A stretch of 64,000 nt of DNA from an uncultured Bacteroidales bacterium (GTDB lineage: Bacteria > Bacteroidota > Bacteroidia > Bacteroidales > WCHB1-69), in NCBI GenBank assembly GCA_900315245.1, contig OMYJ01000007.1, forward strand, positions 93,256-157,255. Reading direction: 5' to 3'. This document shows positions 11,155-21,857 of the stretch, piece by piece. Under the pieces are notes generated by a model. It searched no databases. It was not told the origin of the DNA and saw nothing but the letters and a program-made list of their open reading frames with translations. How positions within the stretch are numbered: the first letter of the stretch is position 1; every line of letters starts with the position of its first letter. The translations under genes were made by a program, and so were the position numbers.

Positions 11155-11430
11155 CACCTGTAAAAATGGATAAGAACCAAACTTTATTGAATATTAGAAG
11201 AGAGAAATAGACATTTATAATTTTTTGATATAAAGCGTTTTTGCTTTTCAAGTAATCGGAAATCTGGACAATTTCCACTGTGTTACAGAAGAAGGCAGAA
11301 ATGCTCACGGTGTATCCGTGGGCTTTCTCGTTTGTAACACAGGCAGTCCAGAGCCTCCGATTAGACAGAAAGACTCACGGATTCTTTTTTGTGACAGCTC
11401 GAAAGGCGAAGCGCCCCAAACGCCAAGCCT

Positions 11431-11634
11431 ATGAGCACCAAGTTTTTCAACAATATCGAGACGAGGCTGATGGACAAATTCCACGGCATCGCCTCCGCCA
11501 TGGCCAACTTCGACATCTTCCATGCCGTGGTTGGCTATTTTCGTTCCAGCGGCTACTTCAAACTGCGCAAGGAGCTGGAGAAGGTCAGCGAAATCCGCAT
11601 CCTCGTCGGCATCAATATCGACACAATATTCTGA
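11431..11634 (+). pseudogene. N-terminal 67-codon fragment of a PLD-like-domain / SNF2-type restriction-like helicase gene
   Basis: MSTKFFNNIETRLMDKF...FDIFHAVVGYFRSSGYFKLRKELEKVSEIRILVGINID matches, from memory, the N-terminus of large PLD-helicase(-methylase) proteins. The ORF stops exactly where GC-rich sequence switches to AT-rich sequence. Confidence 0.55.
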
Positions 11635-14072: not shown

Positions 14073-14247
14073 AGTTGAAGCTTGGAGTTGCATATTCCGG
14101 CGATACCCGTTGGAGTTTTTGAGTTTGCGGAAAATTAGTCAAATATCTTATGAAAAAGAAAAACGATAACAAATACCGAAAATCAATACAATCAATATGT
14201 GATTGAGGTAATATCATAATCTCAAACACAATGGGGATTTACTACAG

Positions 14248-14469
14248 TTGGATAAGGTTCAATTTCTTACAGTCCCGTTATACTGTCCTTCTACTAAGCA
14301 ACAAACACTCGTTGTCGCTTTGGTTGACAAAATCATTGATGCTAAGAAGTCCAATCCTTCGGCTGATACCTCCGCGTTGGAGCGTGAGATTGACGAGTTG
14401 GTGTACGAGTTGTATCAATTGTCACCTGAAGAGATTGCCACAACAGAGGGTTATTGTACACAGAATTAA
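14248..14469 (+). pseudogene. C-terminal fragment of a type IIG / Eco57I-like restriction-modification methyltransferase
   Basis: ...LVVALVDKIIDAKKSNPSADTSALEREIDELVYELYQLSPEEI is the characteristic C-terminal tail of gamma-class RM/BREX-type methylases (from memory). No upstream catalytic region is present. Confidence 0.55.
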
Positions 14470-14548
14470 AATAATAGTGTAAATCGCTGTGTGATTTCTT
14501 GTTCAAAAGGTCTATTCACCTGTAATTTACTGCAATTTGGTTGATAAG

Positions 14549-14594
14549 AAATAGCATTTTTTTCTGACAATTCACGAATTAAATGCTATTTTTG
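14549..14594 (+). promoter_or_regulatory. -7 box (TATTTTTG, 14587..14594) embedded in an 11-bp inverted repeat
   Basis: AAATAGCATTT (14549..14559) and AAATGCTATTT (14581..14591) are perfect reverse complements. The right arm overlaps the -7 box. Confidence 0.5.
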
Positions 14595-14631
14595 TGAAAT
14601 AATCAACCTAACGAAAGGAGGTATAAAAGAA

Positions 14632-14757
14632 ATGGCAAAAAAAGTACCATCAAGAAGAGTCGCATCTCTTGCAGCTCGTGCGTTAAGAAATCGCAAATCA
14701 AGCAGAGCCTTAAAAAGTTTGGCGGGAAGTGTGCTTTCACAGCGAGAAAAGAGATAA
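14632..14757 (+). CDS. 41-aa Arg/Lys-rich micro-ORF (MAKKVPSRRVASLAARALRNRKSSRALKSLAGSVLSQREKR)
   Basis: Not in the track because it is <60 aa. ATG is preceded by AAAGGAGG at -18..-11 and by a TAnnTTTG box at 14587..14594. Coding status is unproven. Confidence 0.3.
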   Translation: MAKKVPSRRVASLAARALRNRKSSRALKSLAGSVLSQREKR

Positions 14758-14801
14758 AGCAATAAAAATGTTTATAATTCTAACAATTAAATCTAAGTAA
14801 C

Positions 14802-15224
14802 ATGGATAGTAGCAAATTAAAAGATCTTATCGTGACTTTGCTCATAGAAGAGTCATCAAAAGTTGGGAACAGATTCACGTTTGATGCCTGCGCAACACCG
14901 ATAAAAGAATCAACGTCTGATGATGTTGAGCGCGTACTGCATTCGTTGGCGCAAGATGGATTCATCAATTGTGATGATTTATTAGAAAACAACTACTTTA
15001 TAACATTAAACCAGTCAATTTTTGATTTGAAAGAGCGCGGCGGGTTTTCAATGCAACTTGAAATCCTAAAGTTGAGATTTGAGAAACTACAAATAGAGGT
15101 TGAAAAACTTGAGAAAGAAGACTTCGAAAAAAGCTCCATGAAAGTTTCCGCGTTTCGTGACATTACGGGAATATTGAGCTCTCTTATCAATATCGTTTCT
15201 GCCATTGCAGATTCTTACAAATAA
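14802..15224 (+). CDS. Hypothetical protein (possible wHTH-like N-terminus, coiled coil, hydrophobic C-terminal helix)
   Basis: AT-rich ORF with a 12-nt gap to the next ORF. LEILKLRFEKLQIEVEKLEKEDFEK coiled coil. C-terminal ITGILSSLINIVSAIA. No family recognised. Confidence 0.55.
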   Translation: MDSSKLKDLIVTLLIEESSKVGNRFTFDACATPIKESTSDDVERVLHSLAQDGFINCDDLLENNYFITLNQSIFDLKERGGFSMQLEILKLRFEKLQIEVEKLEKEDFEKSSMKVSAFRDITGILSSLINIVSAIADSYK

Positions 15225-15236
15225 AATAATCATACA

Positions 15237-16073
15237 ATGAAGACATTTCAAGATAATAACAAAAATGAATGCCCTAAACCAGGAATTCGTCAGAGGTGTT
15301 TTCGACACTCGATTTTTAAAACGCTATCTGATATTAAGGACTTTTATGAAAGTTTGTCTGGGAATGATGATACATCTACTATTCTCGCAATTAAGGGTGA
15401 AATCAACGTTAACTGGAGCATTCTTGAATCTCTTTCTAATACTATTGACTCCATAATAACATTGTTGGAAAGAGGTCATGTGAATGACTCGCTTGCCTTA
15501 ATGAGAAAATACAGCGATGCTGTCTTTTTGCATGTTTACATGCTTGTGCTAATAGAACAAGGAGAACAAAACTTTTTCGAAAAAGAATATGCAGATATCT
15601 ATGACAATGTCCTTAACCAATGGGTTAGAGGGGAAAGTTGTTTGATTGAGAAAAAGGACAAAGATGAGAAAACAGACGCTTATTTAGCAGAAATACGAAA
15701 ACGAGACGCTATATTAACCAAGCTGTTGTTTACAAAAGGCAATAAAACATTGTATGGAGAAGGTAGGGCTTCTTTTAACGACAACATTCATTACAACAAC
15801 TTGAAATCGTTTCGGTGGAACAATAATGCCTTTTTGGATTATGAAACATGTTTAACTGTACTGAATCAAGCAGAAAAAGCAATCAAACTTATTTTGAGCA
15901 TTCATTTCGCTTACATAACTCTATTGCGCCCAATGGCTTTGAAATCAGAAGAGGTTGGATCTTGTGCGGCCAATCCTTTCGCAGACGAAATTTTCAAGAA
16001 GTATATTGTTCCTGAATACTGCGAGTTAGCCAGTTACTTGAGACATTGTTCTTTTTTAACATTCGAAGAGTGA
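15237..16073 (+). CDS. Hypothetical all-alpha protein
   Basis: 278-aa AT-rich ORF tightly linked to 14802..15224. No family recognised. A loose resemblance to AbiV/HEPN-like helical proteins is only a guess. Confidence 0.55.
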   Translation: MKTFQDNNKNECPKPGIRQRCFRHSIFKTLSDIKDFYESLSGNDDTSTILAIKGEINVNWSILESLSNTIDSIITLLERGHVNDSLALMRKYSDAVFLHVYMLVLIEQGEQNFFEKEYADIYDNVLNQWVRGESCLIEKKDKDEKTDAYLAEIRKRDAILTKLLFTKGNKTLYGEGRASFNDNIHYNNLKSFRWNNNAFLDYETCLTVLNQAEKAIKLILSIHFAYITLLRPMALKSEEVGSCAANPFADEIFKKYIVPEYCELASYLRHCSFLTFEE

Positions 16074-16118
16074 CCGACTATAACTATCTTCGTGTCTATT
16101 CTATAAAATCAAACTATT

Positions 16119-16424
16119 ATGAACCAAAACGACCCGCGCATCACCGAATATCAAAACGACTTACAGCGCTATCAATCTTGGGGAAATTTATTCCTCGGTT
16201 TCTCTTTTGGTAGCTTCTTCTCCCCAAACGTGCCGTGCGATTCGCTAACCCTTCACAACGGCTTAGAGTATCTCAAAGCCAAAATGAAACTAAACGCCTT
16301 TAACAGCCAACATCATTCGGACGAGGAAATCGAGCACCGTTTGCGACAAATCGATACGGACATCCGCCATGTGGAGGAGGCCCTGCGGAACGACCTCTCC
16401 TTCCGAGGCCTGCTCCGTCCGTAA
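16119..16424 (+). CDS. Small hypothetical protein whose 3' half belongs to the island composite repeat
   Basis: 101 aa. Hydrophobic WGNLFLGFSFGSFFSP. The C-terminus HRLRQIDTDIRHVEEALRNDLSFRGLLRP recurs at 19500..19609, and a paralogous tail recurs at 16800..16887. Confidence 0.45.
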   Translation: MNQNDPRITEYQNDLQRYQSWGNLFLGFSFGSFFSPNVPCDSLTLHNGLEYLKAKMKLNAFNSQHHSDEEIEHRLRQIDTDIRHVEEALRNDLSFRGLLRP

Positions 16425-16887
16425 CCGCCGTCACGCGCCTCCCTGCCTACACCGGCGTCAACCGCCACGCCTCCGGCATCCGCATCGAGCTGATGGACAG
16501 CATGGTGCCGGTGGAAGCACTGGTGTGCGGGGTGAATCATCCCCGTCAGGGGATGCCTGTCTGTAGCGGATGCCCATGCGCGGGTTCAAATCCCCGGAGG
16601 GGATTCATGTTCAGCGGGTTGCCGAAACATTGTTGTGCCCGATGTGCAACCCCTCACGGGGTTGTGGGGGCTGCCGCATCGCCAACGGCTACAGACAGGG
16701 AACCCCTAACGGGGTTCGGGGGTGCGGTCGGGAACGTCCTCGCGCTACAGATATGGAAGCCCTGACGGGCTTTGGAAGGATACGGAAACGAGCCCATCAC
16801 CGCCTTGCCGAAATCGACGACGACATTCGCAAGGCCGAGGAGGTTTTCCGCTACGACCTCTCCTTCCTCAGGCGGTTGGAAACATGA
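16281..16887 (+). repeat. Island composite repeat copy A (alpha + beta units)
   Basis: Alpha ~16281..16623 aligns with 19469..19813. Beta ~16624..16887 aligns with 20980..21200. It is made of short perfect hairpins such as ATCCCC-GTCA-GGGGAT. Confidence 0.85.
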
Positions 16888-17047
16888 ATGCCCTAGTTCC
16901 ATATAATATAATAAGAACGCCCTGTTGCCACTATCGCACGTCGGGAATCCCATCCAAGTGGAAAATGCATTCCGTTAACAATGCGAATAGCAGATTTCAA
17001 AAATAATTCCAATCATCCAATATTTATTGCATAGAACAAAAAAAATG

Positions 17048-17055: not shown

Positions 17056-17134
17056 CAATTGCAAGCCGAGTTCGTTTACTCAGCTTGCATGAACTAATTT
17101 GGTGTAGTCATTGAATGTTTATTGAATCGGTGTG

Positions 17135-17794
17135 ATGGTAGAAAAGGACAAATTTACGGTGATGGTGAGTTCATCAGTGAACGGATTTGAAGATCAATTG
17201 CTTCGCATTGAGGCACAATTCATCACGTTGGAATATGATGTAATAATGTCAATGTCGGGTTCAATGAAGGTTGACCCAAGACTGCACAACTTTGACAATT
17301 GCTTAAAAGCCGTTGAAGAGTGTGATCTGTTTTTTGGAATTATCAGACCTGATTGCGGTACAGGCAGAGACGGAAGTGAAAGTATTACCTTTCAAGAATT
17401 TAAACATGCTCGGGAATGTCATAAACCTTGTTGGTATGTGATTGATAATCGAATTAAAACATACAAGAATTTGCTGAAATCTTTAGTTCTGCGTGAACAT
17501 CCAGACACAAAAGATGAAGATTTGAACAAAGCCATCACATCTTTCTATGATAACACTATAAGACAAAGGAGGAAACTTCCAAGAGTGTTGGATCTTTTTG
17601 AGACCAAAGACTTACATCAGTTTGATCCTTTATGTTTTGTTATGGAAGATTTTGTGAACCACAAAGGTTTACCTAAAGAAGAAATCACCAATAATTGGAT
17701 GCACTATTATGACCATGAATTGGATATCGCAAAATATATCCGTACAAATTTTGGGGACAAGGTATTCATTGCTAATGTATTAAAAGAATTTTGA
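17135..17794 (+). CDS. DUF4062-like (TIR / nucleoside deoxyribosyltransferase-like fold) protein
   Basis: FTVMVSSSVNGFEDQL...CLKAVEECDLFFGIIRPDCGTG...ITFQEFKHARECHKPCWYVI follows the DUF4062 pattern (vFiSS...DL..eR...cD.fv.i.G.rYG...S.te.Ey..A...kp...f). GTG 17132 / ATG 17135. TAnnTTTG box at 17048..17055. Confidence 0.6.
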   Translation: MVEKDKFTVMVSSSVNGFEDQLLRIEAQFITLEYDVIMSMSGSMKVDPRLHNFDNCLKAVEECDLFFGIIRPDCGTGRDGSESITFQEFKHARECHKPCWYVIDNRIKTYKNLLKSLVLREHPDTKDEDLNKAITSFYDNTIRQRRKLPRVLDLFETKDLHQFDPLCFVMEDFVNHKGLPKEEITNNWMHYYDHELDIAKYIRTNFGDKVFIANVLKEF

Positions 17795-17796
17795 TT

Positions 17797-19356
17797 ATGA
17801 GCGACAATTCGTATATAGTGGATTTTTTACTCAAAGATAGGCAAAATGTGGTGCCTATTCCAACAGCAGACCCCGTAGAGATTGCTAAAAATGCTTGTGC
17901 TTTGGCCAACACACAAGGAGGTACTATGCTCATTGGGGTCAATAATCTTGGCGAACTTGTAGGTGTTGGCCTAAAAGAAGCCACGGACATCATAAACAAA
18001 TGCCTTATCAACAATGTACACCCAACACTTCCTTTTACTATTGGCCATTCTGAAAAAGAGGGCAAAAACATTGCAATAGTTTCTGTTTGGGAAGGCCCGA
18101 ACAAGCCCTATGTTGCAAACGGTGCCTTTTACATACGAAAAGAGGATACTACTGTTGCTGCCTCATCTGACGAAATGATTGGCCTTTTTGAAGAAAAATA
18201 TTCATTAGATGAAGGATGGGAACGGAGAACGCAAGTTTCTGCTTCTATTGATGATTTAGACAGTGTTGCCATATCAAAAATTCGAAACGTATTACTACGG
18301 AAAGATGGAAAGTATGCGACAGCTTCAGAAGTGGAAATTATGCGAACTATGGGATTTGTAAAAGACCAATCCTTCACAAATGCTGGTGTTGTGGTAATGT
18401 CAAAACAGCCTTCCATATTTATACCTCAAACAAGAATTAGAGTGTCGGTATTCACAACGGATAATGGTCAAGCATCTTTGGCAGATGTAAGGTTATACGA
18501 TATTAGTCTTATATCCGCTGTTGACGAAGTGGTCGCCTATCTTTACAATCTATATCCTAAGCGTGTTGTTATCGAAGGAATGTTACGCTCTGATGTCGAG
18601 TCATTGCCGTTGTTGGCCTTACGAGAAGGAATATTAAACGCCGTAGTTCATCGTTCGTATGAAAGCCATCAGTCTTTTGTTGCCATTAATGCATATAGCG
18701 ATTATCTGGAAATTGTTAATAGTGGGAATCTTATGGATGGTGTCACCTTGGATGGATTAAAGAGCGTTCATCGTTCTGTTTTACGTAATCCGGATATTGC
18801 AAATGCTTTTTACCAATTAAGATATATCGAAATGGTGGGAAGTGGTACTTTAAGGATTATTGAATCCTGCAGACAAAACAGATGCGAAGAACCAGTATGG
18901 ACATTGGCGAACAATTGCGTGATTCTGACTTTTCCAAATGTCCATCACAATTTACAACCATTGAAAGAAAAGAAATCTGTTGATGTTTCCAATCTGACGA
19001 CAGACAATTCGGTCAAAGTTTCATTAACTGCTATTATGGATTATTTAGCTACTCATGATCACGTTAAATTAAATGAGTTGACAGAACTGACAGGAAAGAG
19101 CTACCCTTCAGTGAAAAGATACATGCGAATTCTGAAAGACGCATCATTAATTGAATATCTTGGTAATTTGCGTTCTGGCGGCTGGGCATTATCTAATAGT
19201 GTCAGCACCTCGCGTCATAGCAGACCGCTTGATGATCCCAATGATAGTCCTAATGATGATCTTAATGGTGATCCCAATGACGATCCTAATGATGATCCCA
19301 ATAGTGATCCCAATGGTGATTCCAATGGTGTTCCTAATGGTGATCCTAATATATAG
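17797..19356 (+). CDS. Schlafen-type AlbA_2 domain + HATPase_c_4 + wHTH protein (RecG-like putative regulator family) with a low-complexity Asp-Pro-Asn tail
   Basis: N-terminal IAKNACALANTQGGTMLIGVNNLGELVGV (AlbA_2). LREGILNAVVHRSY...MVGSGTLRIIESC (HATPase_c_4). wHTH LNELTELTGKSYPSVKRYMRILKD. Start is either ATG 17797, 2 nt after the upstream stop, or TTG 17791 overlapping it. Confidence 0.8.
   Translation: MSDNSYIVDFLLKDRQNVVPIPTADPVEIAKNACALANTQGGTMLIGVNNLGELVGVGLKEATDIINKCLINNVHPTLPFTIGHSEKEGKNIAIVSVWEGPNKPYVANGAFYIRKEDTTVAASSDEMIGLFEEKYSLDEGWERRTQVSASIDDLDSVAISKIRNVLLRKDGKYATASEVEIMRTMGFVKDQSFTNAGVVVMSKQPSIFIPQTRIRVSVFTTDNGQASLADVRLYDISLISAVDEVVAYLYNLYPKRVVIEGMLRSDVESLPLLALREGILNAVVHRSYESHQSFVAINAYSDYLEIVNSGNLMDGVTLDGLKSVHRSVLRNPDIANAFYQLRYIEMVGSGTLRIIESCRQNRCEEPVWTLANNCVILTFPNVHHNLQPLKEKKSVDVSNLTTDNSVKVSLTAIMDYLATHDHVKLNELTELTGKSYPSVKRYMRILKDASLIEYLGNLRSGGWALSNSVSTSRHSRPLDDPNDSPNDDLNGDPNDDPNDDPNSDPNGDSNGVPNGDPNI
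19231..19353 (+). repeat. 12-nt tandem repeat (~10 units) encoding the (D/N/S)-(D/G)-P-N tail
   Basis: GATGATCCCAAT GATAGTCCTAAT GATGATCTTAAT GGTGATCCCAAT ... Confidence 0.85.
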
Positions 19357-19381: not shown

Positions 19382-19612
19382 CATTGGCATCTCATTTCTC
19401 AGCTACTTTTCTTCCGATCTCCCAGCGGTTCCATAATTCGCAACAACAGTTTGGAATTCTGCAAATCCCAAAAGAAGCTAAACGCCCTCACCGATGCCCG
19501 TCACTCTGACGAGGAAACCGCTCACCGTTTGCGGCAAATCGACACGGACATCCGCCATGTGGAGGACGTCCTCTGTCACGACCTCTCCTTCCGAGGCCTG
19601 CTCCGTCCGTAA
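19382..19612 (+). pseudogene. Start-less degenerate copy of the 16119..16424 ORF
   Basis: The in-frame translation ...KKLNALTDARHSDEETAHRLRQIDTDIRHVEDVLCHDLSFRGLLRP* parallels the C-terminal half of the 101-aa ORF. There is no ATG, and a TGA lies immediately upstream. Confidence 0.45.
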
Positions 19613-19813
19613 CCGCCGTCACGCACCTCCCTATCCCACACCGCCCCCAACCGCCACGCCTCCGGCACCCGCATCGGGCTGATGGACAGCACGGTGTCGG
19701 TGGAGGCGATGGTGGGCGGGGTGCCCCCATCCCCGTTAGGGGATGCCTATCTGTAGCGGATGCCCACGCGCGGGTTCAAATCCCCGGAGGGGATTCATAT
19801 TCAACGGGTTGCA
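19469..19813 (+). repeat. Island composite repeat copy B (alpha unit only)
   Basis: Near-identical by eye to 16281..16623, with scattered substitutions. Confidence 0.85.
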
Positions 19814-19917
19814 AGGTGAAAATTGTCGTGAAATTATGTTCGTGCAATAAATGCGCCCCGTCCTCGTTAATCTCTGAAATAAAACGGAATATTAAACAAA
19901 CAGTAAAAGAAAACAGA

Positions 19918-20732: not shown

Positions 20733-21275
20733 CTCCGTCACGACCTCTCCTCCCGTCGCCTGCTCCGTCCGTGACCCCCTGTCCCGCACCTCCCTTGTCC
20801 CTCACCGCCTCCACCCGCCACGCTTCCGGCACCCGCATCGGGCTGATGGACAGCACGGTGCCGATCGAGGCGCTGGCGAGCGGGGTGGCTCATCCCCGTT
20901 AGGGGATGCCTATCTGTAGAAACGGATGCCCATGCGCGGGTTCAAATCCCCGGAGGGGATTCATTTTCAACGGATTGCCAAAACATTGTCGTGACCGATG
21001 TGCAACCCCTCACGGGGTTGTGGGGGCTGCCGCATCGCCAACGGCTACAGAGAGGGAACCCCTAATGGGGTTCGGGGGGCGCGGCCGGGAACGTCCTCGC
21101 GCTACAGATATGGAAGCCCTGACGGGCTTTGGAAGGATACGGAAACGAGCCCATCACCGATTTGCCGAAATCGACGACGACATCCGCAAGGCCGAAGCCC
21201 CTCCGTCACGACCTCTCCTTCCGTGGCCTGCTCCGTCCGTGACCGCCGTCATGCATCTCCCTTGTCCTACACCGC
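20733..21275 (+). repeat. Island composite repeat copy C (5'-truncated alpha + beta + a second partial alpha abutting nqrD)
   Basis: 20733..20979 aligns with the distal part of alpha. 20980..21200 aligns with beta. 21200..21275 repeats the start of the alpha core and overlaps the nqrD stop codon. Confidence 0.8.
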
Positions 21276-21857
21276 CCTCGGTCCTTTCGCCCAAATAATC
21301 ACCCCAATCAAGATCAGCGCCATGGGCGGCAAAATCATCAGCCCGTTGTTGAGGTAGCCGGCGGCGTACCAGCTGTCGGGGACGACCTGGTGGTTCCACA
21401 ACGTGCCGGAGCCGAGCAATTCGCGGAAGAAGGCCACCACGACGAGCACCAGCCCGTAGCCGAGACCGTTCATCACGCCGTCCATGAACGACGGGAACGG
21501 TTTGTGTGACAGCGCGAAGGCCTCCAACCGGCCCATGATGATGCAGTTGGTGATGATGAGTCCCACGAAGACCGACAGCATCTTGCTCACATCATAGAGA
21601 TACGACTGCAGCAACAGATCCACGAGGATAACGAAGAAGGAGACCACCAGCAGCTGCACGATGATGCGGATGCGTGGCGGTATCGTGTTGCGCATCAAAG
21701 AGATGATGAAGTTGGAGCAGGCACAGACCACCGTCACGGAGAGCGCCATGACCACGGCGGGCTTGAGTTGCGCGGTCACTGCCAACGCAGAGCAGACGCC
21801 CAACGTCTGCACTAAAATCGGGTTGTCTTTGCTGAGAGGTCCGAGGTACTTTTTCAT
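21267..21857 (-). CDS. nqrD: Na+-translocating NADH:quinone oxidoreductase subunit D
   Basis: NPILVQTLGVCSALAVT, polytopic, 196 aa. The last codons and the stop lie inside an island repeat. Confidence 0.95.
   Translation of the reverse strand: MKKYLGPLSKDNPILVQTLGVCSALAVTAQLKPAVVMALSVTVVCACSNFIISLMRNTIPPRIRIIVQLLVVSFFVILVDLLLQSYLYDVSKMLSVFVGLIITNCIIMGRLEAFALSHKPFPSFMDGVMNGLGYGLVLVVVAFFRELLGSGTLWNHQVVPDSWYAAGYLNNGLMILPPMALILIGVIIWAKGPRAV

Follow-up and report, generated by a model that had tools for sequence, protein, structure and literature searches.

A conserved four-gene cassette beside restriction-type defence loci of rumen Bacteroidales, with an orphaned copy between nqrD and nqrE

What does a compact, AT-rich group of small genes without an obvious family do inside a bacterial defence island? 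The question is raised by positions 14,549 to 16,073 of a 64,000-nucleotide stretch of DNA ("the window") from an uncultured Bacteroidales bacterium (GenBank assembly GCA_900315245.1, contig OMYJ01000007.1, positions 93,256 to 157,255 of the forward strand). A preliminary description, made from the sequence without database searches, read three open reading frames (ORFs) there behind a palindrome-embedded promoter, and proposed an unclassified toxin-antitoxin or abortive-infection-like module. Here the window is compared with the loci of its relatives (contigs encoding homologues and metagenome loci, labelled L0xx). The genes turn out to form a conserved cassette of four, which is probably an autonomous accessory of restriction-type defence loci. 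The function is proposed on gene-neighbourhood evidence. The window's ORF list gives the following cassette genes:

14632..14757, + strand: m41, a 41-amino-acid peptide rich in Lys, Arg and Ser, with the C-terminal motif SLAGSVLSQ; a member of phrog_5079.
14802..15224, + strand: p140, 140 amino acids; its middle (about residues 83-112) is rich in heptads and its C-terminal tail amphipathic and hydrophobic; no recognisable family.
15237..16073, + strand: p278, 278 amino acids, all-alpha, the conserved core of the cassette; a distant member of a DUF5677-like family.
16119..16424, + strand: p101, 101 amino acids, the fourth cassette gene, overlooked in the preliminary description; its 3' end runs into a GC-rich island repeat.

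All three ORFs first described are read as stated, in a stretch of 35% GC (the genome is at 49% and the flanking nqr genes at 58%), but the unit has a fourth gene, p101. Contig look-ups and a genome scan give a fixed order, in which the micro-ORF is followed by genes of 140/142, 277/278 and 101 amino acids. This order recurs in at least five independent rumen Bacteroidales lineages (L005-7, L008-10, L011-12, L021 and L022), so that the joint recurrence of m41, p140 and p278 expected of a real gene neighbourhood is indeed found. The p278 ORF begins 12 nucleotides after the p140 stop, and m41 is 41 codons long in all five copies compared (window, L005, L008, L011 and L021). Between divergent lineages, where synonymous divergence (dS) is 0.8-2.0, the ratio of non-synonymous to synonymous substitution rates (dN/dS) of m41 is 0.13-0.25; the value of 0.46 in the near-identical pair L005-L008 rests on three differing codons. 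The ratio is 0.05-0.28 for p140 and 0.09-0.16 for p101, and p140, p278 and p101 together range from 0.05 to 0.28. These low values reflect purifying selection, and all four ORFs are thus real coding genes. The operon-like packing noted at first reading is upheld by this selection on every gene and by the co-occurrence among lineages.

The divergence is a mosaic. Between the window and L005, dS is 1.7-1.8 for m41 and p140 and 0.34-0.35 for p278 and p101. Between the window and L021, it is 0 for m41, which is identical in the two, and rises to 0.395 for p101. Against L013, homology starts 36 nucleotides into p278. Taken together, the alignments show a conserved, predicted four-gene operon with a putative promoter of its own and a first gene led by a putative Shine-Dalgarno sequence. 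A further observation concerns the junction of the second and third genes. In three diverged lineages the p140 stop and the p278 ATG share a reading frame, with one TAA and 4-5 sense codons between them (window 15222-15239, YK*NNHTM; L005 10427-10447, IH*RDHLIM; L011 6569-6586, VK*HYSKM). This could be chance, the relic of a split gene, or an option for readthrough.

Which genes belong together is clarified by what changes around p278. In all loci with the complete cassette, p140 keeps its place between m41 and p278. Its close relatives amount to only 6 clusters among 5.8 billion proteins, and a survey of Bacteroidales genomes finds it in the window's own genome only. In L013 and L014, p278 orthologues of 90-94% identity are preceded by unrelated genes of 259 and 163 amino acids, the latter with hydrophobic stretches and putatively membrane-spanning. 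In L016-L019, genes of 269 and 102 amino acids precede p278 relatives of 41% identity. In L001 the relative directly follows a methylase and has no upstream partner, while a 284-amino-acid member of the 259/269-amino-acid family lies on the opposite strand. In the L026-type loci, where it has no small partner at all, it is flanked by genes for a helicase and a Mod methylase and coupled to them in translation. On its other side, p101 stands 3' of p278 in the window, L005-L014, L021 and L022, and no locus of type A or type B lacks it there. The comparison of these loci shows that the partners are exchanged around a conserved p278-p101 core. The upstream partners include a second family, of 259-299 amino acids, which accompanies the p278 family in three arrangements (L013:5257-6708; L016:1589-2713; L001:11030-11884, - strand). 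It has a conserved N-terminal EKEF[VL]xELL and a near-C-terminal hydrophobic stretch, a putative transmembrane segment, and finds no match in Pfam, NCBIfam or PHROG. Kinship of p140 to the 259/269/284-amino-acid partners was considered and rejected (hhalign E-value 0.1), as was, on comparison, kinship to the N-terminal extension of a 381-amino-acid relative, P0021.

The genes further upstream tell what the cassette accompanies. In L001, L005, L008, L013-L018 and L021, two large genes, for a helicase and a methylase, lie directly 5' of p278 or of the whole cassette. When intact, the first encodes an HKD(PLD)-nuclease/SNF2 helicase (PADLOC 'HKD+Snf2', E 1.5e-41) and the second a type IIG-like Eco57I/TaqI_C methyltransferase (PADLOC REase_MTase_IIG, E 8.9e-72). 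Such HKD-SNF2 and type IIG-like pairs (PADLOC C3a139 and REase_MTase_IIG; related to DISARM DrmD/DrmMI and BREX PglX) constitute the upstream system of the cassette in relatives, but none of its components has a homologue among the cassette genes. The system itself is absent from the window, where two remnants mark its place:

11431..11634, + strand: helicase remnant, the first 67 codons, 92-95% identical by tblastn to the N-termini of L005, L008 and L017.
14213..14469, + strand: methyltransferase remnant, the 3' end (about the last 85 codons), with homology to the intact L021 gene from 14213.

By blastn, positions 11232-11623 align to the 5' regions of the L005 and L008 helicase genes. At the other end, L021 is 93.5% identical to window positions 14213-16867 and retains an intact methylase; the window cassette is thus an orphan, left behind when some 6 kb were replaced. 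Comparison with L005, L008 and L021 puts the deletion breakpoints near 11634 and 14213. The interval between them holds 2.6 kb at 33% GC, with a gene for a BspA-type leucine-rich repeat protein (785 amino acids), in place of the roughly 6 kb of helicase and methylase. Since L013 and L014 also carry the intact system beside nqrD, the space between nqrD and nqrE is a shared chromosomal hotspot. The defence-type island inferred at first reading is recovered here, with the HKD-SNF2 and IIG remnants, a DUF4062 and Schlafen/AlbA_2 pair, and an orphan methylase nearby.

In L011/12 the cassette stands behind RES-domain and unknown genes, and in L019 in yet another setting; the helicase and methylase are missing from both, which argues for the autonomy of the cassette. 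Where both are present, a conserved promoter and a spacer of 160-360 nucleotides separate the methylase gene from the cassette. At L011:886-5512 the cassette follows a RES-domain protein (287 amino acids) and three unknowns (205, 555 and 428 amino acids), the latter without a match in PADLOC or NCBIfam; this may be another uncharacterised defence operon.

For the wider p278 family, contexts were drawn from 42 metagenome loci, with our own ORF calls, clustering, and Pfam typing of neighbours. In one recurrent arrangement the family gene has an SNF2 helicase gene before it and a type III Mod methylase gene behind it, and then either Res or AAA_21 and HNH genes. Its start codon shares bases with the stop codon of the helicase gene (TAATG), and 2 nucleotides lie between its own stop and the Mod ATG. 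Other members stand after a type I HsdR and a YgjP-like peptidase, after BrxC/D and a DEAD helicase, or after an HpaII endonuclease, and others again directly after a serine recombinase (resolvase), beside an IS1595 transposase, or near relaxase-like genes. In several more loci no neighbour could be recognised. The family is sparse and strain-variable: of 301 Bacteroidales species 6 have it, and of three congeners none. The TAATG coupling, to a 954-amino-acid SNF2 helicase, is seen in human-gut metagenome contigs (L026:4582-5466, L035:5983-6863, L029 and L050), and in these same contigs a GGAGG lies 9 nucleotides before the ATG of the family gene, within the helicase coding sequence.

Do these neighbourhoods make the cassette part of the restriction machinery itself? 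It could be an obligate set of subunits or regulators of the HKD-SNF2/IIG system, serving its control, targeting or assembly, and the window copy would then be a functionless leftover that has not decayed. The same-strand adjacency to that system is consistent across relatives of 41-94% identity, translation of the human-gut gene is coupled to that of its neighbours within a helicase-Mod-Res operon, and the loss in the window looks recent, given the 93.5% nucleotide identity to L021 and the unchanged m41. But the cassette has its own conserved, putative promoter and a spacer before it, is present without that system in L011/12 and L019, and has kept four intact ORFs in the window. Moreover the p278 family goes with mechanistically unrelated systems (HpaII type II, type I, BrxD), which a specific subunit role would not explain. 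We regard an obligate subunit as improbable, and retain the autonomous accessory as the reading to be weighed against the properties of p278.

The p278 protein has close relatives in 8 clusters among 5.8 billion sequences. Searched with a profile, 1.84 billion representative proteins extend the family to 177 relatives (50%-identity clusters, E-value at most 1e-3), mostly of 260-295 amino acids. The preliminary description could place none of its three proteins in a family. This stands for p140, and p101 has no family either, but m41 belongs to phrog_5079 and p278 to this 177-member, DUF5677-like family. Against DUF5677 itself (PF18928), p278 scores 14 bits (E 0.054) and does not reach the gathering cut-off of 27.1 bits. 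Weak matches to DUF5677 are found in 15 of 73 family representatives (best E 8.1e-6), and hhalign of the family against 12 Bacteroidales DUF5677 proteins gives a weak E-value of about 0.03 over 35 columns. In that comparison the L-x-R-x3-[D/E] helix is aligned, and in a global alignment the His motifs of the two families are colinear. Both are of about 260-300 amino acids and all-helical, with L-x-R-x3-[D/E] followed by a conserved His some 95 residues on, and both are found in accessory, mobile or defence-island settings, in some cases right beside serine recombinases. A preprint reports DUF5677 among the domains significantly enriched in ORFs for which co-transcription with serine recombinases that mark defence loci is predicted (PMC12632615). 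The p278 family differs by its own signature, R-x2-C-N-D-N-x-H-Y-N, and of 301 Bacteroidales genomes none has both: 6 carry the p278 family and 14 carry DUF5677. A PF18928 search of the window's own genome has no match. These similarities suggest, without proving it, that the p278 family and DUF5677 are distantly homologous.

In an alignment of 45 sequences from the fetched loci, S72, D84, L88, R90, Y101, W129, N181, H185, N187 and N195 are invariant and D94 and D182 nearly so. AlphaFold2 with this alignment gives an all-alpha model (mean predicted local confidence, pLDDT, 83.5; predicted template-modelling score, pTM, 0.85); a run with 8 close sequences was unusable (pLDDT 41.9), and the deeper alignment was used instead. 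The all-alpha fold proposed at first reading is thereby supported by prediction. On adjacent elements of the model, the R90-x3-D94 helix motif, D84 and the loop N181-D-N-x-H185-x-N187 form a polar constellation that looks like a putative active or binding site.

An all-helical protein with conserved Arg and His brings HEPN ribonucleases to mind. PrrC/RloC and Abi_2 are HEPN RNases appended to type I restriction operons as second-line defence. Those of abortive infection, such as HepS of Gifsy-1 (PMC13043305), are likewise all-helical, have a conserved Arg and His, and sit in prophage or defence slots. Yet the invariant R90 of p278 has no His 5-7 residues downstream; the nearest arrangement is R177-x7-H185, and R177 is not invariant. 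Foldseek against the PDB gives no match at an E-value of 0.001 or below, and no HEPN entry, HepS (9OIJ/9OIK) included, is among the best 50 matches. With both the R-x4-6-H motif and a HEPN fold match missing, the assignment is rejected and the family is not filed as HEPN.

On balance, the cassette probably works autonomously as an accessory to restriction-type defence loci or as their second line, with p278 as its presumed catalytic or sensing part. Several points weigh against this. The profile and structure searches that the preliminary description had proposed give the p278 model no fold neighbour in the PDB (best E 0.5, TM at most 0.28) or BFVD (best E 0.27). A search of PDB sequences with the family profile finds nothing, and no above-threshold match in Pfam, NCBIfam or PADLOC assigns p278 a biochemical function. 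In PADLOC v2, p278 relatives match 'HTH_VI' below threshold (E 0.0004-0.0014), and m41, p140 and p101 match nothing. About one third of the sampled contexts of the family lack a recognisable defence gene, and the association with restriction genes could come from shared hotspots and not from a functional link. Between the window and L021, the closest intact relative, dN/dS is 0.4-0.5 on very few changes, too few to tell whether selection on the orphaned copy was relaxed after the loss of the restriction genes. Finally, of the ORFs tested in E. faecalis five gave protection against six phages, and the single DUF5677 ORF was not one of them (PMC12632615).

The region in front of the cassette decides how far the first proposal, a toxin-antitoxin or abortive-infection (Abi) module, can be kept. 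It contains the following features:

14549..14591, + strand: inverted repeat with 11-nucleotide perfect arms, AAATAGCATTT (14549-14559) and AAATGCTATTT (14581-14591).
14587..14594, + strand: -7 box TATTTTTG, by direct reading; it matches the Bacteroidota consensus TAnnTTTG and overlaps the right arm of the repeat.
14614..14622, + strand: extended Shine-Dalgarno sequence AAAGGAGGT, 9 nucleotides before the m41 ATG at 14632.

TAnnTTTG is the Bacteroidota -7 promoter consensus, paired in Bacteroides promoters with a -33 TTTG. The TATTTTTG box is invariant in all aligned upstream regions of homologous loci, while the bases next to it vary, and a sigma-70-type promoter scan marks 14564-14592. No clear TTTG is seen at -33 upstream of it, and Rfam, terminator and promoter scans find nothing besides this promoter-like site. 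The inverted repeat, which extends to 16 nucleotides at 88% complementarity, is kept in the nearest relative L021 only, and is absent from L005, L008, L011 and L022. When a conserved operator was sought in the orthologous spacers, the inverted repeats present there proved to be unrelated, AT-rich and imperfect. The palindrome embedding the promoter therefore exists as described, its 11-bp repeat overlapping TATTTTTG, but is lineage-specific and stands outside the conserved design.

Were this a classical type II toxin-antitoxin or Abi pair, p278 would be the toxin, and p140 the antitoxin, which would bind DNA at the palindrome and so repress the promoter. The tight packing of the two genes, the smaller one upstream, and the location in a defence island fit such a pair, and the palindrome on the -7 box is unlikely to be fortuitous (perfect inverted repeats of at least 11 nucleotides arise in 10 of 2000 dinucleotide-preserving shuffles of the 162-nucleotide spacer). 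But the palindrome is missing from orthologous loci that keep the promoter. Pairing is not stable either, p278 being joined by m41 and p140, by proteins of 259 and 163 amino acids, by proteins of 269 and 102, or by none, and its L001- and L026-type relatives do without any small partner. Nor do p140 and p278 match a toxin or antitoxin superfamily in Pfam, NCBIfam, PADLOC, PHROG or PDB sequences. For p140, those searches are empty throughout (PDB profile search, E at least 0.36), and the winged-helix-like N-terminus first suggested, with it a DNA-binding fold, could not be confirmed. Because the upstream partners of p278 are swapped or absent between lineages, a classical pair is disfavoured. 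Having neither stable pairing, nor a conserved operator, nor homology to any toxin, antitoxin, Abi or PADLOC entry, it is in our view unlikely, and the accessory module is preferred for what follows.

The Shine-Dalgarno sequence, in contrast to the palindrome, is part of the conserved design. The strong signal reported before the micro-ORF is confirmed as AAAGGAGGT, and the Shine-Dalgarno sequence AAAGGAGGTAT, m41 and the TATTTTTG box are kept in every cassette lineage. The block GAAAGGAGGTAT is invariant, with varying flanks, in the type A upstream regions (window, L005-L007, L008-L010 and L011/L012) and in L021, and it is unchanged although m41 dS between the lineages compared reaches 1.7-2.0. 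It combines at least 8 nucleotides of complementarity to the 16S 3' tail, a spacing within 5-10 nucleotides, and conservation in orthologues. Such leaders are rare in this genome, where AAGGAGG or AGGAGGT at 4-11 nucleotides before an ATG is found for only about 32 first-ATG ORFs in 3.05 Mb. Among the genes so led (C9:67830, C9:69040, C9:123996, C17:29052 and C16:234917-235441, all on the - strand) are CorA-like and RnfE/NqrD-like genes, three tandem paralogues, and one with the N-terminus AAAAAGGAGGTTTTTATG, which we take to be that of an hpf/RaiA-like ribosome hibernation factor. The rpsU leader GAAAGAGGTAT is one base shorter than that of m41, and is preceded by a TATTTTTG box of its own. 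According to published work, the anti-Shine-Dalgarno sequence is masked in Bacteroidia ribosomes, which respond to Shine-Dalgarno sequences only in the absence of bS21 (PMC7797042, PMC9976891); this is why the conservation in front of m41 deserves attention. In the rpsU autoregulation of Flavobacterium johnsoniae, which works through ribosomes that lack bS21, a long conserved complement of the 16S 3' tail likewise precedes a gene for a very small basic protein (PMC7797042, PMC9976891). The parallel is partial, as m41 is not bS21, and Bacteroidales fail the published criteria for rpsU autoregulation.

The peptide itself matches phrog_5079 over its full length (E 1.1e-12, residues 1-40 on profile positions 6-45 of 49), and the match is repeated in the genome search (E 4.5e-12). 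The proteins of phrog_5079 are small, basic and of unknown function, and share with m41 a Lys/Ser-rich N-terminus and ...K-S-x-A-G-S-[AV]-L-S-Q. In 401 Bacteroidota genomes the family is found in 18, either as single peptides of about 42-53 amino acids or as tandem-double ORFs of 80-84, with the common motif ...KS-x-AGS-[AV]-LSQ. Its neighbours there include DUF4917, nucleotidyltransferase, DUF2278 and resolvase genes. The m41 of the cassette differs from other phrog_5079 relatives in being the first gene of a p140-p278-p101 operon, and among the upstream sequences listed for the sampled relatives, the rumen cassette copies alone have the strong Shine-Dalgarno sequence. A tblastn search of a phage collection with m41 has no match, probably because the low-complexity filter was on.

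That the cassette is mobile-element cargo without a defence role, made of genes for element maintenance or transfer or of phage origin, is unlikely: it would suit the PHROG family of m41, the resolvases, IS1595 transposase and relaxase-like genes beside p278-family members, and the AT-rich, mosaic, often recombined sequence, but phage collections have no match to m41 (with the filter just mentioned) or to the p278 model, restriction and helicase genes predominate among the neighbours, and the locus is the nqrD-nqrE chromosomal hotspot shared with L013 and L014, with no identifiable element.

At the 3' end of the cassette, p101 has no recognisable family in Pfam, NCBIfam, PADLOC or PHROG searches, and its residues 39-101 recur at 19421-19609. 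Its last 60 or so codons, with the GC-rich, hairpin-rich sequence that follows, occupy window positions 16300-16900 and are repeated at 19421-19830 and 20733-21277. Repeats of this kind are found also in L013, L014 and L021, and could be substrates of recombination for cassette exchange at the nqrD-nqrE hotspot. Downstream in this island, the DUF4062 (220 amino acids) and Schlafen/AlbA_2-HATPase_c_4-HTH (521 amino acids) genes form an overlapping pair at 17132-19356, and the 521-amino-acid protein matches PADLOC pAgo-associated models (E 3.7e-15).

A model of the accessory module can be proposed from these comparisons. The p278 protein would be the enzyme or sensor of a second-line, abortive-infection-like or restriction-supporting module; an abortive-infection-like role is possible. 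Its upstream partners, p140 here and unrelated, putatively membrane-spanning proteins elsewhere, would adapt or restrain it. The small basic peptide m41, from a family shared with phages, would come first, its strong Shine-Dalgarno sequence offering an unusual translational entry to the operon. A bolder combination, in which the p278 family has a new enzyme or sensor fold and the m41 Shine-Dalgarno sequence also makes the operon depend on ribosomes with an exposed anti-Shine-Dalgarno sequence, is unlikely as a whole. If it were true, the p278 family would be a promiscuous second-line part of ATP-dependent restriction, joining HKD-SNF2/IIG, SNF2/type III, type I and BrxD systems through exchangeable small partners. 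Ribosomes deficient in bS21 or remodelled by phage, for example, would then drive the operon, and the cassette would read the translational state of the infected Bacteroidales cell.

Catalogues of defence systems cover gut and rumen Bacteroidales poorly, and a conserved four-gene cassette is now defined there. The window illustrates the erosion of the nqrD-nqrE defence hotspot, in which the restriction genes are lost and the accessory cassette persists. In a class reported to be blind to Shine-Dalgarno sequences, m41 is a rare gene with a conserved one, and might lend itself to the study of specialised translation as a natural test case. The p278 family, of about 270 amino acids, adjoins or is built into several mechanistically different restriction-type operons, and D84, R90, D94, N181, H185 and N187 are now available as residues for mutation. 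With its confident and unmatched predicted fold, it is a concrete candidate family in which to seek a new accessory function of restriction-type immunity.

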